Assembly (NCBI GenBank): GCA_965223325.1 | Contig: CBDCWI010000002.1 | Span: 4,000,001-4,064,000 of the forward strand | Reading direction: 5' to 3' | Source: Candidatus Multivoradales bacterium | GTDB taxonomy: Bacteria > Acidobacteriota > Thermoanaerobaculia > Multivoradales > Multivoraceae | DNA length: 64,000 bases | Shown here: piece after piece, positions 1-7,168 of the stretch | How the letters are laid out: the number at the start of each line of letters is the position of its first letter | Position numbering within the stretch: the stretch's first letter is position 1 | Notes under the pieces: generated by a model | The model's database searches: none | Told to the model about the DNA's origin: nothing | Seen by the model: only the letters and a program-made list of their open reading frames with translations | Position numbers and translations under genes: made by a program

Positions 1-587
1 TCGTCACGAACGGTGACCTCGGGATCGATCTGCAGGGCGACACCGAGTCGATCGGCGATTGCGTACATGCCTTCGATCTGGTCTTCGTTCCAACGCGTGA
101 GGGTCGAGTTGATCTTGAGACGCATGCCGCGGCCTTTGATCTCCTCGAGATTCTCGAGGAGGCGTTCGAAGCTGCCGGCGACCTGGGTCTGTTGGTCGTG
201 GGTCGAGGCGCAGTCACCATGAAGGCTGACTTCGATCAGAAACGGGTCGACCTCGGAGTGGAGACGTTCGAGCATCGCGCCGCGCAGAGCATGGCCGTTC
301 GACTTCACCCGCACCGCGAAGCCGCGCTCCCGGGCGTACGCACCGATCGTGAAAAAGTCCGGGTGAGCCAGTGGCTCCCCTCCCGAGAGAATCAGGTTGA
401 GCGCCCCCATTTCGGCCAACGCATCGATCGTCTGGAGCCAGTCCGGGGTCTCGAGGGGCTGGCCCACCAACGACAGGTCGTTGTAGCAGAACCAGCAGTC
501 GAGGTTGCAGCGGTAGGTGAGCTCGAAGAGGGCAGTAAACAGCCGCTCCTCTTCCCACAGGCGGGCGGCGATTTCGCGAAAGGCCAG
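1..587 (-). CDS. Radical SAM protein (PqqE/SPASM-like), N-terminal part; truncated by the window edge
   Basis: My translation (not in the ORF track): LAFREIAARLWEEERLFTALFELTYRCNLDCWFCYND...LILSGGEPLAHPDF...VKSNG...IEVSLHG...GSFERLLENL. CxxxCxxC lies at 486-509 and a GGEP motif follows. The frame is open to position 1. Likely start is CTG at 587, with AAGGA 8 nt upstream. Confidence 0.92.
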   Translation of the reverse strand, partial: MAFREIAARLWEEERLFTALFELTYRCNLDCWFCYNDLSLVGQPLETPDWLQTIDALAEMGALNLILSGGEPLAHPDFFTIGAYARERGFAVRVKSNGHALRGAMLERLHSEVDPFLIEVSLHGDCASTHDQQTQVAGSFERLLENLEEIKGRGMRLKINSTLTRWNEDQIEGMYAIADRLGVALQIDPEVTVRD

Positions 588-652
588 GGTGGAAGTCCTT
601 CGGGAGTGGGGAGGGCGGGGAACCGCTTGGAGGGGTCGACGACCCTTAGGAC

Positions 653-823
653 CTAGGAAGAAATCGGGCCGCCAGGGCAGCTGCCGTAGTCGGCTTTGCC
701 GGGGCCTGAGCACACCGCGGCGACGACTTCGAGCGCCTCGCGCGACAGGATTACCGGGCGCTGGTAGCGTCGCCGGTCCTGCTTGGGGTCCTTCGCTTTG
801 GGCTTTGGAACGGGCTTCTTCAT
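653..823 (-). CDS. Putative RiPP precursor peptide, 56 aa
   Basis: ATG at 823 to TAG at 653 gives MKKPVPKPKAKDPKQDRRRYQRPVILSREALEVVAAVCSGPGKADYGSCPGGPISS. It has a basic leader with YxxPx(I/L) and a Cys/Gly/Ser/Pro-rich tail, and ends 65 nt upstream of the radical SAM gene. It is below the ORF-track length cut-off. Confidence 0.8.
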   Translation of the reverse strand: MKKPVPKPKAKDPKQDRRRYQRPVILSREALEVVAAVCSGPGKADYGSCPGGPISS

Positions 824-842
824 GAGGTGACTTCCATCTACG

Positions 843-862
843 CGGGAGGCGAGACCCTCCCG
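843..862 (-). other. 5'-terminal stem-loop of the precursor transcript
   Basis: Minus strand CGGGAGG-GTCTCG-CCTCCCG is a perfect 7-bp stem just downstream of the predicted -10 box. Confidence 0.55.
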
Positions 863-871
863 AGCCCAAAA

Positions 872-900
872 ATCGTATCAAAACTATTATTTCTACTCAA
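872..900 (-). promoter_or_regulatory. Sigma70-type promoter for the peptide gene
   Basis: Minus strand TTGAGT-17 nt-TACGAT with an extended -10 TG (TGaTACGAT), in an AT-rich patch within GC-rich DNA. Confidence 0.7.
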
Positions 901-905
901 GCTGG

Positions 906-2330
906 TCAGGTGCCCGGGCTGGTCAGGATGATCTTGATCGTTCGCAGCAGGATGGAGAGGTCCAACCAGAGGCTCCAGTTGGCCAGGTAGGCGAGGTCGT
1001 AGCGCAGTTTGTTACGGGCGCTCGAGTGGTAGTTGCCATTGACCTGCGCTAGGCCGGTCAGCCCTGGGGGCATCGCGAAGCGCTCGATGTAGCCGGGAAT
1101 CTCGTCGATGAACTGAGCGACGAAGCTCGGGCGCTCGGGCCGTGGACCCACCAGGCTCATCTCTCCCCGCAACACGTTGAGGAGCTGCGGGACCTCATCA
1201 AAGCGGCTGCGGCGCAGGAAGCGGCCCACCGGAGTGATACGGGGGTCTTCGGGACTGGCGAGGACGGCGCCGGTGCTGGATTCGGCGTCCACCACCATGG
1301 TGCGCAGCTTGAGCAACTCGAAGGGCTGTCGATCACGGCCGAGCCGCTTCTGGCGAAAAATCACCGGGCCTGGCGAGCTCCAACGCACTGCGATCGCCGC
1401 GACGATCATGAAGGGAATCGACAGGAAGAGCGCCAACGAAGCAACCACGACGTCGAAGGCACGTTTGAAGGGAAGGCTTGCGCGCCACTCCGAGGCCCGC
1501 ATGACCTCGATCAGCGCCATGTCGTGGACCGAGCGGAAGCGAGTGCGACCGATCAGGCTCTCGAAGGGACTGGGCAGGAGCAAGACGGTGCCTCGCTGAC
1601 TGGGCTGGCGCGCCATGCGGTCGATCAGACGCGTTTGCCAGTCGTCGGGTGAGGCGGCCATCACGATCATGTCGATGGTTCCGTCGTCGATGAGATCTGG
1701 CAGGTCCGCCACGCTGCCCAGGTGTGGTCCGAGCGTTTCCCTGGGGTGCCAGGTATCCCTTTCCCCGCCACGCGCGCGACGGCCTTCCTCGGGAATCGCC
1801 ACGTGCCCTCCGATGCGGAGTCCATGCCAGTGGTACCTCTCGATGTGCAGTGCCAGCTCCCGCGCCGCGTCGGAGGTGCCGATGATGGCGACCTTGCGCC
1901 ACTCGGTGGGTTGCAACTGCATGAGCAGCAGGCGAAACAGAAACAGCACGACCAGGTGAATAGGCCAGAACAGCACCAGCACCGATCGTGGAAAGGTGAG
2001 CTGAGACAAGAAGTAGAAGGCCATCAAGAGAAGCGTCTGAATGCTGACGACTGCCAACAGGCGGTTGAGAACCTCGAGGCGAGGTCTCGGGCGTCCGCCG
2101 TCGTAGAAACCAAACAACCACAGGAGCAGGTTCTGCGTGATCACGACCAGCAGCGAGGCGGTGCCGAAGAAGATCAGTCGCTCCTGCGGCAACAGCGCCT
2201 GAGTCAGTGGAATGGGCAGCGTAATGCGGACCAGAAACGCCAGGTAGAGCGACAAGAGCCCCACTGCAACATCGCCCGAGGCGCGCACGAGGCGAAAAAG
2301 CAGCCGAAGTTGGTTTGTTGCGGAATCCAT
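906..2330 (-). CDS. Polyprenyl-phosphate glycosylphosphotransferase (WcaJ/WbaP-type priming sugar transferase)
   Basis: N-terminal TM helices, a Rossmann-like IIGT segment, and a C-terminal Bac_transf domain (KRAFD, KLRTM, DPRITPVGRFLRRSRFDEVPQLLNVLRGEMSLVGPRPE, PGLTGLAQV). Confidence 0.93.
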   Translation of the reverse strand: MDSATNQLRLLFRLVRASGDVAVGLLSLYLAFLVRITLPIPLTQALLPQERLIFFGTASLLVVITQNLLLWLFGFYDGGRPRPRLEVLNRLLAVVSIQTLLLMAFYFLSQLTFPRSVLVLFWPIHLVVLFLFRLLLMQLQPTEWRKVAIIGTSDAARELALHIERYHWHGLRIGGHVAIPEEGRRARGGERDTWHPRETLGPHLGSVADLPDLIDDGTIDMIVMAASPDDWQTRLIDRMARQPSQRGTVLLLPSPFESLIGRTRFRSVHDMALIEVMRASEWRASLPFKRAFDVVVASLALFLSIPFMIVAAIAVRWSSPGPVIFRQKRLGRDRQPFELLKLRTMVVDAESSTGAVLASPEDPRITPVGRFLRRSRFDEVPQLLNVLRGEMSLVGPRPERPSFVAQFIDEIPGYIERFAMPPGLTGLAQVNGNYHSSARNKLRYDLAYLANWSLWLDLSILLRTIKIILTSPGT

Positions 2331-2667: not shown

Positions 2668-3621
2668 ATGAAAGTGATCGAACATCTGGCGCGCTCCGAG
2701 CGCCCCCTGATCAGTTTCGAGATCATTCCGCCGTTGCGAGGTGGCAACCTGAGCGGTCTGCTCGGCCTCATCGAGGATCTGGCGAAGTTCGAACCGCCCT
2801 TCATCGACATCACCAGCCACGCCGCCGAGGCGTTCTTCGAGGAGACCAAAGAGGGTGAGTTTCGTCGCCGGGTCAAGCGCAAGCGCCCCGGCACGCTCGG
2901 AATCTGCGCTCTGATCCAGAACAAGTATGGGATCGATGCCGTTCCTCATCTGCTCTGTCACGGGTTTTCGCGCGAAGAGACCGAAGACATGCTCATCGAG
3001 CTTACCTATCTGGGAATCGACAACGTGCTGGCGGTGCGCGGCGACTATCCGGGCTACGCCAAGCCGCTGGCCAACCACCGCACCGCCAACAGCTACGCGG
3101 TCGATCTGGTCAGCCAGATCGCCGATATGAATCGCGGAGTGTACCTGGAAGAGGGGCTCCTGGATGCCGAGCCAACGGACTTCTGCATTGGGGTCGGCGG
3201 CTATCCAGAGAAGCACTTCGAGGCTCCCAATCTGACGACCGACATCGAATACACCAAAGCGAAGGTCGAGGCTGGAGCCGACTACATCGTGACCCAGATG
3301 TTTTTCGACAACCAGCAGTACTTCGACTACGTCAAAGCCTGCCGCGCGGCTGGTATCGAAGTCCCCATCATCCCGGGCCTCAAGATCGTCACCAGTCGCA
3401 AACACCTGCAGACCCTGCCGTCGAACTTCTACGTCGACTTGCCGGACGATCTCGTGGGCGAGATCGGCGATGCGCCCAGCAAGCACGTGCGGGAGATCGG
3501 CGTGCGTTGGGCACTCGACCAGAGCCGAGAGTTGCTCGACTGGGGAGTGCCATCGGTGCACTTCTACGTCATGCAGAGCTCGGCGGCGATCAAGCCGCTC
3601 CTCGACCAATTGGATATTTGA
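2668..3621 (+). CDS. metF: 5,10-methylenetetrahydrofolate reductase
   Basis: ISFEIIPP, VPHLLC, NVLAVRGD, GGYPEKH, KVEAGADYIVTQMFFD, HFYVM; directly upstream of metH. Confidence 0.95.
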   Translation: MKVIEHLARSERPLISFEIIPPLRGGNLSGLLGLIEDLAKFEPPFIDITSHAAEAFFEETKEGEFRRRVKRKRPGTLGICALIQNKYGIDAVPHLLCHGFSREETEDMLIELTYLGIDNVLAVRGDYPGYAKPLANHRTANSYAVDLVSQIADMNRGVYLEEGLLDAEPTDFCIGVGGYPEKHFEAPNLTTDIEYTKAKVEAGADYIVTQMFFDNQQYFDYVKACRAAGIEVPIIPGLKIVTSRKHLQTLPSNFYVDLPDDLVGEIGDAPSKHVREIGVRWALDQSRELLDWGVPSVHFYVMQSSAAIKPLLDQLDI

Positions 3622-3655
3622 GGCCCCTTAGCCTCAGCCGAGAAAAACGCCAGTC

Positions 3656-6600
3656 ATGAACCCAATCTCTCTGGAAGCCTTGAGGGCAGTCAAAGCGCCC
3701 GCCTCGCCGCGTCCCGAGGACGCTGATGCGCGCCGTCGAGCACTTTTCGAGGCGCTCGAGGAGCGCATTCTGGTTCTCGATGGGGCGACTGGTACGGCGA
3801 TGCAAGGCCAGGACCTCGGACCGGAAGACTTCGGTGGCGAAGAGCTCGAGGGGTGCAACGAGATCCTCTGCGTTACGCGCCCTGATGTGGTTCTCGACGT
3901 GCATCGTCACTATCTTGCAGCGGGCGCCGACATCGTCGAAACCAACACCTTCGGCGCCACACCCCTCGTGCTCGCCGAGTACGACCTGGCCGAACGTGCC
4001 TTCGAGCTGAACAAGCTGGCTGCCCAACTCGCGCGCTCGGCATGTACCGAGTTCGACGACGAAAAAGCGCGGTTCGTCTGCGGGTCGATGGGGCCGACGA
4101 CGAAGGCCATCTCGGTCACCGGCGGCGTCACCTTCGAAGAGCTCATCGAGCACTATCGCATCGAAGCGCTCGGGCTGATGGCAGGCGGCGTCGACTACCT
4201 GCTACTCGAAACCTGCCAGGACACCCGCAACGTCAAGGCTGGGCTCCTCGGAATCGATGGTGCCGTCCGGGAGCTTGGCTTCGAAGTACCGGTGGCGGTT
4301 TCGGTGACCATCGAAACCATGGGCACGATGCTGGGCGGTCAAGACGCTGAGGCGCTGGCCGTTTCTCTGATGCACCGCGAGCTACTCTACGTCGGCCTCA
4401 ACTGTGCCACCGGCCCCGAGCTCATGGCAGATCATCTGCGAACGCTTTCCGAGCTCGTGCGTACCCGAGTCGCCTGCGTTCCCAATGCCGGCCTTCCCGA
4501 CGAGGATGGCGAGTACAACGAGGGCCCCGAGGCGTTTCGGGAGGTTTTCGGTCGCTTCCTCGACGCGGGTTGGCTCAACCTCGTCGGCGGCTGTTGTGGC
4601 ACCACCGCCGCTCACGTCGCCGAACTGGTTGCGCTGAGCGCCGGCCGCACGCCACGGGTGGTACCGGCTCATCGCCGCGCTCTAGTCTCGGGGCTCGAAG
4701 CGGTGGAGCTCACCGAAGACAACCGTCCGCTCCTGGTTGGTGAACGCACTAACGTCCTCGGGAGCCGCAAGTTCAAGCGACTGATCGCGGAAGAGAGCTT
4801 CGAGGCCGCTGCCGAAGTCGGGCGCGCACAGGTTCGAGGCGGTGCGCAGGTAATCGACGTCTGCCTGCAAGACACGGAGCGCGACGAGCTCGCAGACATG
4901 GAAGCCTTCCTCGACCGCCTGGTGCGCCTGGTCAAGGTTCCGCTGATGATCGACTCGACCGATCACGAGGTGATGCATCGGGCCCTGACCTGGTGTCAGG
5001 GCAAAGCGATCCTCAACTCGATCAACCTCGAAGACGGCATCGAACGTTTCGAACACGTCGTCCCATTGGCAAAGCGATTCGGCGCCGCCCTCGTGGTTGG
5101 TTTGATCGACGAGCAGGGGATGGCGGTGAGCGTGGAGCGCAAGCTCGAAGTCGCGCAGCGGAGCTACGAGCTTCTCACCGGCGACTACGGTGTCCTGCCT
5201 GAAGACATCTGGTGGGATCCACTGGTGTTTCCCTGCGGTACTGGCGACGAGAACTACGTTGGCTCGGCGAAGGCAACCATTGATGGTGTGGCTGCGGTGC
5301 GTGGCGCCTTTCCGGGGACTCGCACCATCCTCGGCATCTCGAATGTCAGCTTCGGCCTTCCCAACGCCGGCCGCGAAGTTCTCAACTCGGCGTTTCTCTT
5401 CGCCTGCACACGCGCCGGGCTCGACGCGGCCATCGTCAACACCGAGAAGCTCGCGCGCTATGCCGACATCCCAGCCGAGGAGCGGATGCTTGCCGAGCGC
5501 CTGCTCAGCCTCGAGGTTGGTGATGTTGCAGCTTCGGAGACCGCAGTCGAAGAATTCACAGCGCACTTTCGTGGTCGCAAGTCGACCGTCGGCGCCGTCG
5601 AGCGTGCCGACCTTCCGTTGGGCGAGCGGCTCGCGCGTAACATCGTCGAAGGCACCAAAGAAGGGCTTGCCGAGGATCTCGACGCAGCACTGGCGGATCC
5701 AGCCTGGCCGCAGCCTCTTGACATCATCAATGGACCATTGATGACCGGTATGGCGGAAGTCGGTCGCCTCTTCAACGACAACGAGCTGATCGTTGCCGAG
5801 GTTTTGCAGAGCGCCGAGGTCATGAAGGCGGCGGTGTCACAGCTCGAACCGCACATGGAGTCGTCGGGGGCGTCGGCCAGCCGCGGCAAGGTGGTCTTGG
5901 CGACGGTGAAAGGTGACGTTCACGACATCGGCAAGAATCTGGTCGACATCATCCTGAGCAACAACGGCTTCGAGGTCGTCAATCTCGGAATCAAGGTGCC
6001 GAGTGAGCAGTTGATTCAAGCGGTGCGTGAGCACCAGCCGGACGTTCTCGGTCTTTCGGGTCTTCTGGTCAAGAGCGCGCAGCAGATGGTGCTGTCGGCC
6101 GGCGATATGCAAGCCGTAGGTGTCGACCCCGATTTGATTGTCGGTGGCGCAGCACTGACCCGTCGGTTCACGCACAAGAAGATCGCGCCGGCCTACGGTG
6201 GGTTCTGCACCTACGCCAAGGATGCGATGCATGGCCTCGACCTCGTCGAACAGCTCTGCGACGCGAGCCGTCGCGCACAGCTCATCGAGCAGGTTGCCGA
6301 GGTACAAAGGGCCGACCAGGAGGCACCGGAGAACGCGTCCCGCAAGGCACGTGTGGTTTCAGAAACCCGGTCGGCCGACGTGCGTCTCGACCTTGTGCCA
6401 CCCCGGCCGCCCGACCTCGAGCGCCATCGCGAAACCCTGGTCCTCGACGAGGTCTGGGAGCAGCTCAACCCGCAGATGCTCTTTGGCAAGCACCTGGGTT
6501 TCAAGGGGTCGGTCGCCAAGGCACAGGCCAATGGCGACGCGAAGTTGGCGAAGCTCGAGGAGATCGTCGGTGAGCTGAAACAACTAGCGCGCGACGGTGC

Positions 6601-7168
6601 CCTCGAGGTGGAGGCGGTCTGGCGCTTCTTCCCAGCACGAGCCGAGGGCAACGCGTTGGTCTTGTTCGATCCTGACGCCGAAGGTCGCGAAGCGGCACGC
6701 TTCGATCTGCCGCGGCAGGCGGGCGAGAACGGCCACTGCCTCGCCGACTATGTCCTCGCGGGCGACCATGTCGCCCTCTTTGTGACCACCGCGCGCGGTG
6801 CCCGCGAACGCGCCGAGCGATGGAAGAGTGAAGGTGAGTACTTGAAGAGCCACGGTATTGCCGCTCTCGCTCTCGAGACCGCCGAAGCCGCCGCCGAGCT
6901 GGTGCACATGCGCATGCGGGCGGCCTGGGGATTCGCCGACCCGCCGGAGATGACGCCGCGAGAACGCTTCGCGGCACGCTATCGCGGCAAGCGCTACAGT
7001 TTTGGCTATCCCGCCTGTCCGGACTTGGCAGATCAGCGCGCACTGTTTGCAGCGCTCGAGCCGGAGGACGTGGGCGTTCGCCTCACCGAGGGCGACATGA
7101 TGGATCCGGAGGCCTCGGTGTCGGCCCTCGTCTTTCATCATCCTGACGCCAAGTACTTCGGCGTCTGA
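3656..7168 (+). CDS. metH: Cobalamin-dependent methionine synthase
   Basis: VLDGATGT, GGCCGTT (Hcy/Zn), GERTNV pterin domain, KGDVHDIGKN...GLSGLL B12-binding motif, RYSFGYPACPDL activation domain. Confidence 0.97.
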   Translation: MNPISLEALRAVKAPASPRPEDADARRRALFEALEERILVLDGATGTAMQGQDLGPEDFGGEELEGCNEILCVTRPDVVLDVHRHYLAAGADIVETNTFGATPLVLAEYDLAERAFELNKLAAQLARSACTEFDDEKARFVCGSMGPTTKAISVTGGVTFEELIEHYRIEALGLMAGGVDYLLLETCQDTRNVKAGLLGIDGAVRELGFEVPVAVSVTIETMGTMLGGQDAEALAVSLMHRELLYVGLNCATGPELMADHLRTLSELVRTRVACVPNAGLPDEDGEYNEGPEAFREVFGRFLDAGWLNLVGGCCGTTAAHVAELVALSAGRTPRVVPAHRRALVSGLEAVELTEDNRPLLVGERTNVLGSRKFKRLIAEESFEAAAEVGRAQVRGGAQVIDVCLQDTERDELADMEAFLDRLVRLVKVPLMIDSTDHEVMHRALTWCQGKAILNSINLEDGIERFEHVVPLAKRFGAALVVGLIDEQGMAVSVERKLEVAQRSYELLTGDYGVLPEDIWWDPLVFPCGTGDENYVGSAKATIDGVAAVRGAFPGTRTILGISNVSFGLPNAGREVLNSAFLFACTRAGLDAAIVNTEKLARYADIPAEERMLAERLLSLEVGDVAASETAVEEFTAHFRGRKSTVGAVERADLPLGERLARNIVEGTKEGLAEDLDAALADPAWPQPLDIINGPLMTGMAEVGRLFNDNELIVAEVLQSAEVMKAAVSQLEPHMESSGASASRGKVVLATVKGDVHDIGKNLVDIILSNNGFEVVNLGIKVPSEQLIQAVREHQPDVLGLSGLLVKSAQQMVLSAGDMQAVGVDPDLIVGGAALTRRFTHKKIAPAYGGFCTYAKDAMHGLDLVEQLCDASRRAQLIEQVAEVQRADQEAPENASRKARVVSETRSADVRLDLVPPRPPDLERHRETLVLDEVWEQLNPQMLFGKHLGFKGSVAKAQANGDAKLAKLEEIVGELKQLARDGALEVEAVWRFFPARAEGNALVLFDPDAEGREAARFDLPRQAGENGHCLADYVLAGDHVALFVTTARGARERAERWKSEGEYLKSHGIAALALETAEAAAELVHMRMRAAWGFADPPEMTPRERFAARYRGKRYSFGYPACPDLADQRALFAALEPEDVGVRLTEGDMMDPEASVSALVFHHPDAKYFGV

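Follow-up and report, generated by a model that had tools for sequence, protein, structure and literature searches.

A radical SAM-bearing peptide cassette in an acidobacterial exopolysaccharide locus, a probable relative of the linear polyphosphorylated peptide pathway

What does the 56-codon open reading frame (ORF) near the left end of this stretch of Candidatus Multivoradales DNA encode, and which genes belong with it? The stretch, hereafter the window, comprises 64,000 nucleotides (G000:C2:4000001-4064000). We took the 18 kb to its left as a second region, L004, in which each position equals the window position plus 18000. [quoted passage not shown] Our analysis supports this reading: the adjacency of the peptide and rSAM genes, a PqqD-type recognition element, a SPASM-type domain and a peptidase suggest that window positions 653-823 on the minus strand encode the precursor of such a peptide, with its maturation genes around it. 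We further propose that the cassette is probably related to the linear polyphosphorylated peptide (LPP) pathway of Bacillota, to which it adds an rSAM enzyme. By analogy with that pathway, the peptide would be matured by the PqqD-type protein, the rSAM enzyme, a kinase and the peptidase, within an exopolysaccharide locus. The peptide gene has the following parts.

Window 653..823, minus strand: precursor peptide gene, 56 residues plus TAG stop (ATG at 823, TAG at 655-653)
Window 719..823, minus strand: predicted leader, Met1-Ala35; boundary inferred from the spacing in LPP and the Ala at Tyr+15
Window 749..766, minus strand: recognition motif Tyr20-Gln-Arg-Pro23-Val-Ile25, of the form [Y/W]xxPx[I/V]; Y20 and P23 invariant in 14/14
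Window 656..718, minus strand: predicted 21-residue core, Ala36-Ser56, with invariant Cys38, Lys43, Cys49 and Ser56

The ORF is present exactly as it had been quoted and, judged from its coding pattern and conservation, is a real gene. The G+C content at third codon positions (GC3) of ORF 653-823 is 0.74, as compared to 0.53 in the overlapping upstream extension of the rSAM frame. Because the former value matches the genes of the region, which have GC3 of 0.72-0.81, the peptide frame is taken as the coding one. That the peptide and rSAM genes had both been missing from the ORF list of the window is explained by the length of the peptide, which is under 60 residues, and by the rSAM gene crossing the window edge. 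In a six-frame search, peptide homologs were detected in 10 of 40 relatives at E <= 0.0011. Among 1.84 billion representative sequences, the peptide profile matched 881 proteins at a threshold of E <= 1e-3, of which 137 also pass E <= 1e-10; nearly all are 44-100 residues long. The peptide has a single match in this genome, and is thus single-copy. A word-indexed protein search with the peptide alone returned only the window's own protein, the peptide had no match in Pfam or NCBIfam, and none of ten family members looked up by exact sequence carries a name.

Conservation within the family is concentrated in the second half of the leader and in the core. In 14 sequences from 11 genomes, the invariant columns are M1, Y20, P23, E29, E32, A35, C38, K43, C49 and S56; the N-terminal 19 residues of the leader are variable, while Tyr20 to Ala35 are conserved. 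The 150 best family members nearly all share two features: a C-terminal Ser (149, the remaining member ending in Thr) and a pair of Cys, no more and no fewer, within the last 40 residues (146). Ser56 is the sole conserved hydroxyl residue of the core. Of the core residues initially listed, the two Cys are conserved but the Tyr is not. We also pooled 237 sequences, from which 220 unique tails fit one fixed-spacing pattern. Five positions, counted from the first motif residue, are set by the pattern itself: [YWF] (0), P (+3), [ILVMT] (+5), E (+12) and C (+18). Among those that it leaves free, Ala occupies Tyr+15 in 219 of the 220 tails and Glu occupies Tyr+9 in 209. Lys-x5-Cys occurs in 183 tails, Cys-x7-end in 175, and Asx two residues after the Lys (four before Cys49) in about 152. 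The first residue of the motif is Y in 199 tails and W in 21.

The rSAM gene lies where it had been placed, 65 nt downstream of the peptide gene (652..588), and its frame carries CNLDCWFC, corresponding to the motif C27-x3-C31-x2-C34. The encoded protein matches Pfam Radical_SAM (4.5e-18) and SPASM (2.5e-11). C27, C31 and C34 are invariant in 12/12 orthologs, and the only other invariant Cys are 256, 274 and 325. Thus, the SPASM domain sought in the follow-up is present but in a reduced, twitch-like form: the C-x12-G-x4-C part is kept and the CxxCx5Cx3C block is missing, so that three auxiliary Cys remain in place of the seven- or eight-Cys motif and two auxiliary clusters of a full SPASM domain. 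A three-ligand auxiliary cluster could take a substrate Cys as its fourth ligand, a notion familiar from the sactisynthase literature. The closest solved relatives by sequence were PqqE (2.8e-21), SkfB (6efn, 1.5e-14) and CteB (5wgg, 3.8e-10), and the auxiliary region aligned with the twitch region of BtrN (3.8e-6). Curated matches included StsB (5.3e-29), PapB (2.6e-17) and AlbA (2.2e-16), all below family cut-offs; the heme-pathway enzymes AhbD and NirJ were also among the top curated matches.

We then examined the surroundings of the rSAM gene in other genomes. A scan with the rSAM alignment, using one genome per species, yielded at least 408 relatives among at least 594 pattern matches, of which the best 80 loci were kept. 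A peptide match was found in 68 of these 80 loci; if only the 73 loci whose sequence continues for 1 kb or more past the rSAM gene are counted, all 68 remain. The nearest peptide copy is convergent and just downstream of the rSAM gene in 63 loci, with a median gap of about 80 nt, the common order being PqqD, rSAM and convergent peptide gene (63 of the 68 peptide-bearing loci). Other arrangements keep the two adjacent: two co-directional downstream, two upstream and one overlapping. Peptide homologs therefore stay beside rSAM orthologs through several gene orders, as the initial reading had anticipated. All 70 peptides in the 80 loci end in Ser. Partner genes recur in the same loci: 78 have PqqD, 75 have the kinase-like gene and 65 have the peptidase. 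Wzy_C is encoded in 41, as is the TPR protein, and the sugar transferase in 22. The order in the window (peptide, then rSAM on the same strand, with PqqD convergent) was seen again only in genome G025. The departure from the common order in this genome is an inversion of the rSAM gene alone, which is thereby co-directional with the peptide gene and overlaps the 3' end of the PqqD gene by 8 nt with its own 3' end.

The peptide and the kinase-like protein also occur together across the class. The peptide profile matched 38 of 251 genomes, in 28 of 91 genera. The kinase-like protein was found in 105 of the 251 genomes at E <= 1e-15, 44 of them at E <= 1e-30. Strong kinase matches (E <= 1e-30) are present in 37 of the 38 peptide-bearing genomes, and the 38th, G213, has a weaker kinase-like copy beside its peptide. 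These class-wide tallies include the unpublished genomes G199 and G127, and the co-occurrence is given as counts without a statistic because kin are not independent. In two genomes, G015 and G013, the precursor was located on a separate short contig. Metagenome-assembled genome records of Acidobacteriota, Thermoanaerobaculia or Holophagales are the nearest relatives in public data.

The remainder of the cluster does lie beyond the left edge of the window, where the PqqD, kinase-like, peptidase and TPR genes were found on L004. The genes and spacers of the locus, from left to right, are as follows.

L004:13710-15143, plus strand: Wzy_C/O-antigen-ligase-like protein; precedes the TPR gene
L004:15080-15676, plus strand: membrane TPR protein
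L004:15673-16203, plus strand: archaeal-type signal-peptidase-like protease (Peptidase_S24)
L004:16200-17147, plus strand: ScmC/HprK-like P-loop kinase-like protein, 315 residues
L004:17144-17425, plus strand: PqqD-type recognition element, 93 residues
G000:C2:3999418-4000587 (L004:17418-18587), minus strand: whole rSAM gene, 389 residues
Window 1..587, minus strand: first 195 codons of the rSAM/twitch-SPASM maturase gene, from Pfam and the ortholog alignment
Window 588..652, minus strand: 65-nt spacer between peptide stop and rSAM start, the start position being fixed by orthologs
Window 824..905, minus strand: AT-rich 82-nt spacer between sugar-transferase stop and peptide gene
Window 906..2330, minus strand: polyprenyl glycosylphosphotransferase of exopolysaccharide priming, 474 residues (TIGR03025, Bac_transf)

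The TPR, peptidase, kinase-like and PqqD genes follow one another on the plus strand with successive 4-nt overlaps, and are thus translationally coupled, converging on the rSAM gene. On the other side, the peptide gene is preceded on its own strand, at a distance of 82 nt, by the priming glycosylphosphotransferase gene, whose product matches NCBIfam TIGR03025 (6e-116, above the cut-off) and Pfam Bac_transf (1.9e-65). Further left on L004 are Wza-, Wzc- and CpsB-like genes, a second Wzy_C gene and a gene for 3'-phosphoadenosine 5'-phosphosulfate (PAPS) synthase. Because the Wza/Wzc/CpsB/Wzy_C-like genes lie to its left and the priming transferase to its right, the cassette is taken to be embedded in a Wzx/Wzy-type exopolysaccharide locus.

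The partner proteins were compared with curated families, solved structures and homologs. The recognition element that had been expected in the left flank matches Pfam PqqD (2.6e-15), and its best NCBIfam match is the GeoRSP PqqD model TIGR04302 (5e-12). In a profile search against solved proteins, TbiB1 (2.5e-13), PbaB1 (9x90, 2.8e-8), LppB (9x8z, 1.2e-7) and TfuB1 (1.6e-7) all ranked ahead of PqqD itself. These four are B1-type proteins that, according to the parts of PMC13381572 consulted, were solved with [Y/W]xxP leaders. The role of this motif in lasso and LPP leaders is likewise described in the portions consulted of PMC13381572 and PMC10368454. In line with the proposed leader motif YxxPx(L/I), YxxPx(I/V) is invariant in the family, and the recognition element is nearest to [Y/W]xxP-binding B1 proteins.

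The kinase-like protein carries the conserved motifs LLHS, G-x-S-G-A-G-K-T-T (H..G.SGAGKTT) and LSDD, and 11 of 12 members of its family have weak matches to PEPCK_ATP. Against solved structures, its sequence and profile gave P-loop and PEPCK matches only. The precomputed Pfam assignment of the family is PF27840, named ScmC by Atlas, as read from the homolog P0214 and not from the window's own protein; Atlas clusters of the family are auto-named 'HprK-related kinase A' and 'ScmC domain'. Natural fusions exist: one joins a ScmC-like kinase to PqqD (P0247, 422 residues), and one Atlas cluster, from Bacteroidota, has Peptidase_S24 and ScmC domains in the same protein (410 residues).

The peptidase, also sought in the left flank, matches Pfam Peptidase_S24 (1.5e-5). 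Its best curated match is archaeal-type signal peptidase I (TIGR02228, 3e-8), with a score of 33.7 bits that is below the cut-off of 51.85, and its matches among solved structures (signal peptidase I, LexA and SEC11A) were all weak. His85, Asp104 and Asp110 are invariant in 6/6 sequences. In the nucleophile motif G-x-[C/S]-M-x-P, the central residue is Cys in 50, Ser in 10 and another residue in 5 of 65 homologs (L042-L121). From this motif, the Cys-bearing peptidase would be a thiol variant of an S26B-type enzyme.

A gene for an NTP_transf_5 nucleotidyltransferase (PF14907) is part of the cassette operon in 33 of the 80 loci of relatives (for example, L085: about 2945-4093, plus strand). The one PF14907 gene of this genome (G000:C2:3973334-3974038, minus strand) is remote from the cassette, roughly 26.6 kb leftward of the peptide gene. 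A second rSAM gene and a transporter had been listed among the things to look for in the left flank; there is one rSAM gene only, and no transporter was found.

LPP is the closest characterized system to the cassette. As set out in the parts of Popov et al. (Nat Commun 2026, PMC13381572) on which we draw, the LPP genes of Paenibacillus alginolyticus, LppA/K/B/S/D/N, include those for a signal peptidase I-like enzyme with a Ser/His/Asp triad, dependent on the recognition element, for a kinase resembling HprK and for a nucleoside triphosphate (NTP) transferase, and lie inside capsule loci. In those parts, the LPP leader motif is given as YxxPxVLxHQxIxFETxxS, with cleavage after Thr(-1), 15 residues past the motif Tyr, and Ser3 of the core is polyphosphorylated. 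Common to the two systems are a leader peptidase, putative in the cassette, that resembles archaeal-type signal peptidases, a recognition element of the PqqD type encoded as a discrete protein, an HprK-like kinase, a [Y/W]xxPx[V/I]L leader and a location in a capsule or exopolysaccharide locus. They also share the NTP transferase, though on the cassette side in the loci of 33 of the 80 relatives. The spacing of the leader is as in LPP: Ala35 of the cassette peptide, at Tyr+15, takes the place of LPP Thr(-1), with mostly a small residue at -3, and Cys38, at Tyr+18 and thus core position 3, takes the place of the phosphorylated Ser3. As for the criteria by which LPP clusters are recognized, the recognition element and HprK-like kinase are encoded here by adjacent genes with a 4-nt overlap, direct similarity to HprK being weak; the combination of an NTP transferase with an exporter resembling MsbA in the cluster was not found in this genome.

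The two systems differ in several respects. The remainder of the LPP leader motif is replaced in the cassette by xRE(P)LE(A)xAxxC. The LPP core set contains no counterpart of the rSAM/twitch-SPASM enzyme of the cassette. The core of the cassette peptide, about 21 residues long, is conserved, with two Cys and a fixed C-terminal Ser, whereas LPP precursors have 35-200 residues and C-termini that vary. As its nucleophile, LppS has Ser29, while 50 of 65 homologs of the cassette peptidase have Cys. Finally, the host is an acidobacterium, whereas LPP is called restricted to Bacillota in the parts of PMC13381572 consulted, where its final product and role are described as still unknown. We found no description of this rSAM-bearing cassette in the literature; the supplementary clusters of PMC13381572 beyond #1 lay outside the comparison and could include relatives from other phyla. 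The part of PMC10288494 consulted mentions neither kinases nor Acidobacteria.

We propose a pathway of five steps, all inferred by analogy and conservation. First, the PqqD protein would bind the leader at Tyr20-x-x-Pro23-x-Ile25. Second, the rSAM enzyme, predicted to have one SAM cluster and one auxiliary cluster with three Cys, would crosslink the core through Cys38 and/or Cys49; the bond would most likely be a thioether to the carbon of another residue, a candidate being the Asx four residues before Cys49. Third, the kinase would phosphorylate a Ser, for which Ser56 is the candidate. According to the sections of PMC8498205 consulted, the Ser at the C-terminus of the linear precursor is where HprK homologs place the phosphate in lasso pathways of the paeninodin type, and Ser56 is considered the most likely target for this reason. 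Fourth, the signal-peptidase-like enzyme, with Cys for the nucleophilic Ser, would cut after Ala35 and free the core; cleavage between Ala35 and Ala36 and a 21-residue product are predicted because the spacing of Ala35 equals that of LPP Thr(-1). Fifth, in many relatives, the NTP_transf_5 nucleotidyltransferase of the same operon may extend the phosphate, comparable to pseudomycoidin, in which a nucleotidyltransferase adds a sugar to the phosphate (PMC8498205, as far as the same sections go).

Several observations weigh against this pathway. The first group concerns the kinase and its target. Hpr_kinase_C had no match in any of 12 members of the kinase-like family at E <= 1. The alignment of the protein by hhalign with the genome's own HprK/P reached 36.7% probability over 53 columns, spanning the P-loop to the DD region, and its score against ScmC (TIGR04249) was 22.7 bits, with a cut-off of 125. 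The choice of kinase target is a guess because the position phosphorylated in LPP, core position 3, is a Cys here. The candidate acceptor Asx is present in only about 152 of 220 tails, and the core is far more conserved than is typical of antimicrobial RiPPs.

The second group concerns the rSAM gene and the composition of the locus. From the peptide stop up to the CxxxCxxC motif, the rSAM frame has none of the canonical start codons ATG, GTG and TTG. Where 10 of 11 orthologs start with one of these codons, this genome has a CTG (window 587..585, minus strand), which is preceded at a distance of 8 nt by AAGGA (600..596) and has a counterpart in the relative G015, which also has CTG at its rSAM start (L038:10767-10769, plus strand). 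The rSAM gene may therefore be weakly expressed or decaying in this genome. In at least three genomes (G010, G012 and G003), the only detected precursor is on a different contig from the enzymes, and a peptide match is missing from 7 of the 44 strong-kinase genomes. No ATP-binding cassette (ABC) exporter is encoded near the locus, the nearest ABC_membrane match on the contig being more than 1 Mb away.

A different fate for the product, which we regard as doubtful, is that the crosslinked peptide forms part of a glycoconjugate instead of being a natural product in free form. In this scheme, Ser56 would be phosphorylated and then glycosylated by NTP_transf_5 or by the Wzy_C/O-antigen-ligase-like protein, and the peptide would prime, cap or anchor the exopolysaccharide. 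A giant protein of about 1400-1500 residues that ends in a Peptidase_C25 (gingipain-type) domain is encoded in 49 of the 80 loci, in most cases immediately upstream of the peptide gene and co-oriented with it (for example, L085:9555-13739 and L116:9292-13854, both minus strand). This genome has eight Peptidase_C25 giant genes, none of them at the cassette locus. Such a glycoconjugate and the giants that adjoin the peptide gene could belong to one surface machinery.

It is also unlikely that the peptide gives rise to a small redox cofactor or another housekeeping molecule, as PqqA and MftA do, rather than to a secreted phosphopeptide; the rSAM enzyme and PqqD would then carry out the central step, with the kinase and peptidase as accessories. 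Four points would suit a cofactor: relatives of the rSAM enzyme include PqqE (2.8e-21 among solved structures; TIGR02109, 2.3e-25) and the mycofactocin maturase (3.3e-29), conservation of the core is high, the peptide is single-copy here, and no exporter was found in the locus. The invariant last residue also recalls the C-terminal chemistry of MftA. Nevertheless, the scores are far below the family cut-offs (PqqE, 89.3 versus 381 bits; MftC, 102.1 versus 265 bits), and membership in the pyrroloquinoline quinone (PQQ) or mycofactocin families was rejected on these values. No dehydrogenase or cofactor-using partner is conserved; the partners are instead a leader peptidase, a kinase and polysaccharide genes, which is the LPP pattern. 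The recognition element is closest to lasso and LPP B1 proteins, not to PqqD.

Other families that pair a PqqD relative with an rSAM/SPASM enzyme were compared to the cassette, including GeoRSP and SynChlorMet, both of which had been suggested initially. GeoRSP shares with the cassette a PqqD-family chaperone and an rSAM/SPASM enzyme. Its models TIGR04302 and TIGR04303 scored 46.2 versus 100 bits and 66.4 versus 400 bits, respectively, and membership was rejected. The SynChlorMet cassette (TIGR04248-TIGR04251), known from genome comparison only, has the same kinds of parts: a ScmC-family protein (PF27840), a PqqD relative and a PqqE-like rSAM/SPASM enzyme. Membership was rejected here too, as ScmC scored 22.7 versus 125, ScmD 20.3 versus 100, ScmE 74.1 versus 400 and ScmF 63.6 versus 400 bits, and the locus has one rSAM gene, not two. 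To our knowledge, the SynChlorMet family description identifies no precursor; a literature search for 'SynChlorMet' returned 0 papers. Finally, the sactipeptide and ranthipeptide maturases SkfB, CteB, PapB, StsB and AlbA resemble the cassette in having a SPASM/twitch rSAM enzyme, Cys-containing cores and a recognition element. By contrast, the recognition element of the cassette is a separate protein, its rSAM auxiliary region has three Cys, and its thioether is only predicted.

We consider it very improbable that the small ORF is an unmodified conserved small protein or a non-coding artefact and that the rSAM enzyme acts on another substrate, for example a sugar or lipid of the exopolysaccharide pathway. 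The polysaccharide genes around the cassette, the AhbD and NirJ matches of the rSAM enzyme and the unlinked precursors of some genomes would be compatible with this explanation. It is opposed by the coding-like pattern of the ORF and by a stop that follows Ser in 149/150 of the best members and 70/70 of the locus peptides. It is opposed further by the pairing of an invariant [Y/W]xxP leader with a lasso-type recognition element, by an adjacency that survives several rearrangements, and by near-perfect co-occurrence with the kinase-like gene.

The phosphorylated or phosphoglycosylated lasso peptides (paeninodin PadeK/ThcoK, SyanK, BsfK/BsfB1 and pseudomycoidin) have, as does the cassette, an HprK-like kinase, a B1 element, a C-terminal Ser in the precursor and a YxxPxL leader; in the sections of PMC10368454 consulted, the recognition element BsfB1 boosts the kinase BsfK. 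These pathways have a cyclase and a B2 protease, whereas the cassette has an rSAM enzyme instead. According to Pfam, none of the ORFs scanned (L004 66-18590 and window 906-2330) encodes an asparagine-synthase-like cyclase or a transglutaminase-like B2 protease, and neither was noticed among the large ORFs scanned in the loci of three relatives. A lasso cluster was therefore rejected, and a paeninodin/Bsf-type cluster with its cyclase and B2 protease elsewhere is scarcely credible despite the YxxPx(I/V) leader, B1-like element, HprK-like kinase and invariant C-terminal Ser, since an rSAM enzyme and a signal-peptidase-like protease occupy 65-80 of the 80 loci instead.

The peptide gene had also been credited with its own sigma70-like promoter and a 5' hairpin. 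Both elements are present on the minus strand of the window: TTGAGT (900..895) and TACGAT (877..872) are separated by a 17-nt spacer, and a 7-bp hairpin occurs at 862..843. However, the promoter matches only 8 of 12 consensus positions, and a scan of window 400-1100 at a threshold of 9/12 returned 0 sites. Similarly, the 82-nt leader region folds no better than shuffled sequences (z = -0.34; 66 of 200 shuffles fold as well). On these grounds, neither the separate promoter nor the hairpin stands above chance, and co-transcription of the peptide gene with the upstream sugar-transferase gene is equally possible.

Some further observations concern neighbouring genes and paralogs. A fused ATP-sulfurylase/adenosine 5'-phosphosulfate (APS) kinase, the PAPS synthase, is encoded just upstream of the Wzy_C gene (L004:11410-13149, plus strand) and at the same place in 4 of the 80 loci, which hints at sulfation in the polysaccharide locus. 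A gene for a 636-residue protein with no Pfam or NCBIfam match (L004:9379-11286, minus strand) is kept beside the cassette in 30 of the 80 loci. Beyond the sugar transferase are genes for methylenetetrahydrofolate reductase and a 1170-residue methionine synthase (window 2668-7168, plus strand); the same reductase neighbour occurs in the locus of one relative (L085:15549-16493).

A paralogous cassette from another genus (genome G084:C1, L126:5589-8662) comprises genes for PqqD, an rSAM enzyme of 427 residues, a kinase-like protein and an S24 peptidase. It adjoins a gene of the formylglycine-generating enzyme (FGE)-sulfatase family, and no precursor was identified there. The kinase-like paralog of G084 matches Hpr_kinase_C weakly (8.4e-4), and half-length kinase matches like it occur in about 60 genomes of the class. 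Near one such half-length match, in G111:C1, a small ORF (L127:5221-5403, plus strand) encodes a W-T-T-P-K-L motif and a tail rich in Ser, Ala and Cys. Judged from this motif and tail, it may be the precursor of a paralogous system.

Overall, our preferred reading, that of an rSAM-bearing relative of LPP, would mean that the LPP-type logic of leader, recognition element, kinase and signal peptidase is present in Acidobacteriota too, though LPP is described by its authors as confined to Bacillota. The rSAM enzyme, together with the Cys at the place of the phosphorylated Ser, offers a testable link between radical crosslinking and serine phosphorylation in RiPPs. The 21-residue core, being short and highly conserved, should be far more accessible to mass spectrometry than are the products of LPP pathways. 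As a second, independent case of such peptides in exopolysaccharide loci, the cassette makes a role in the matrix or capsule worth testing.

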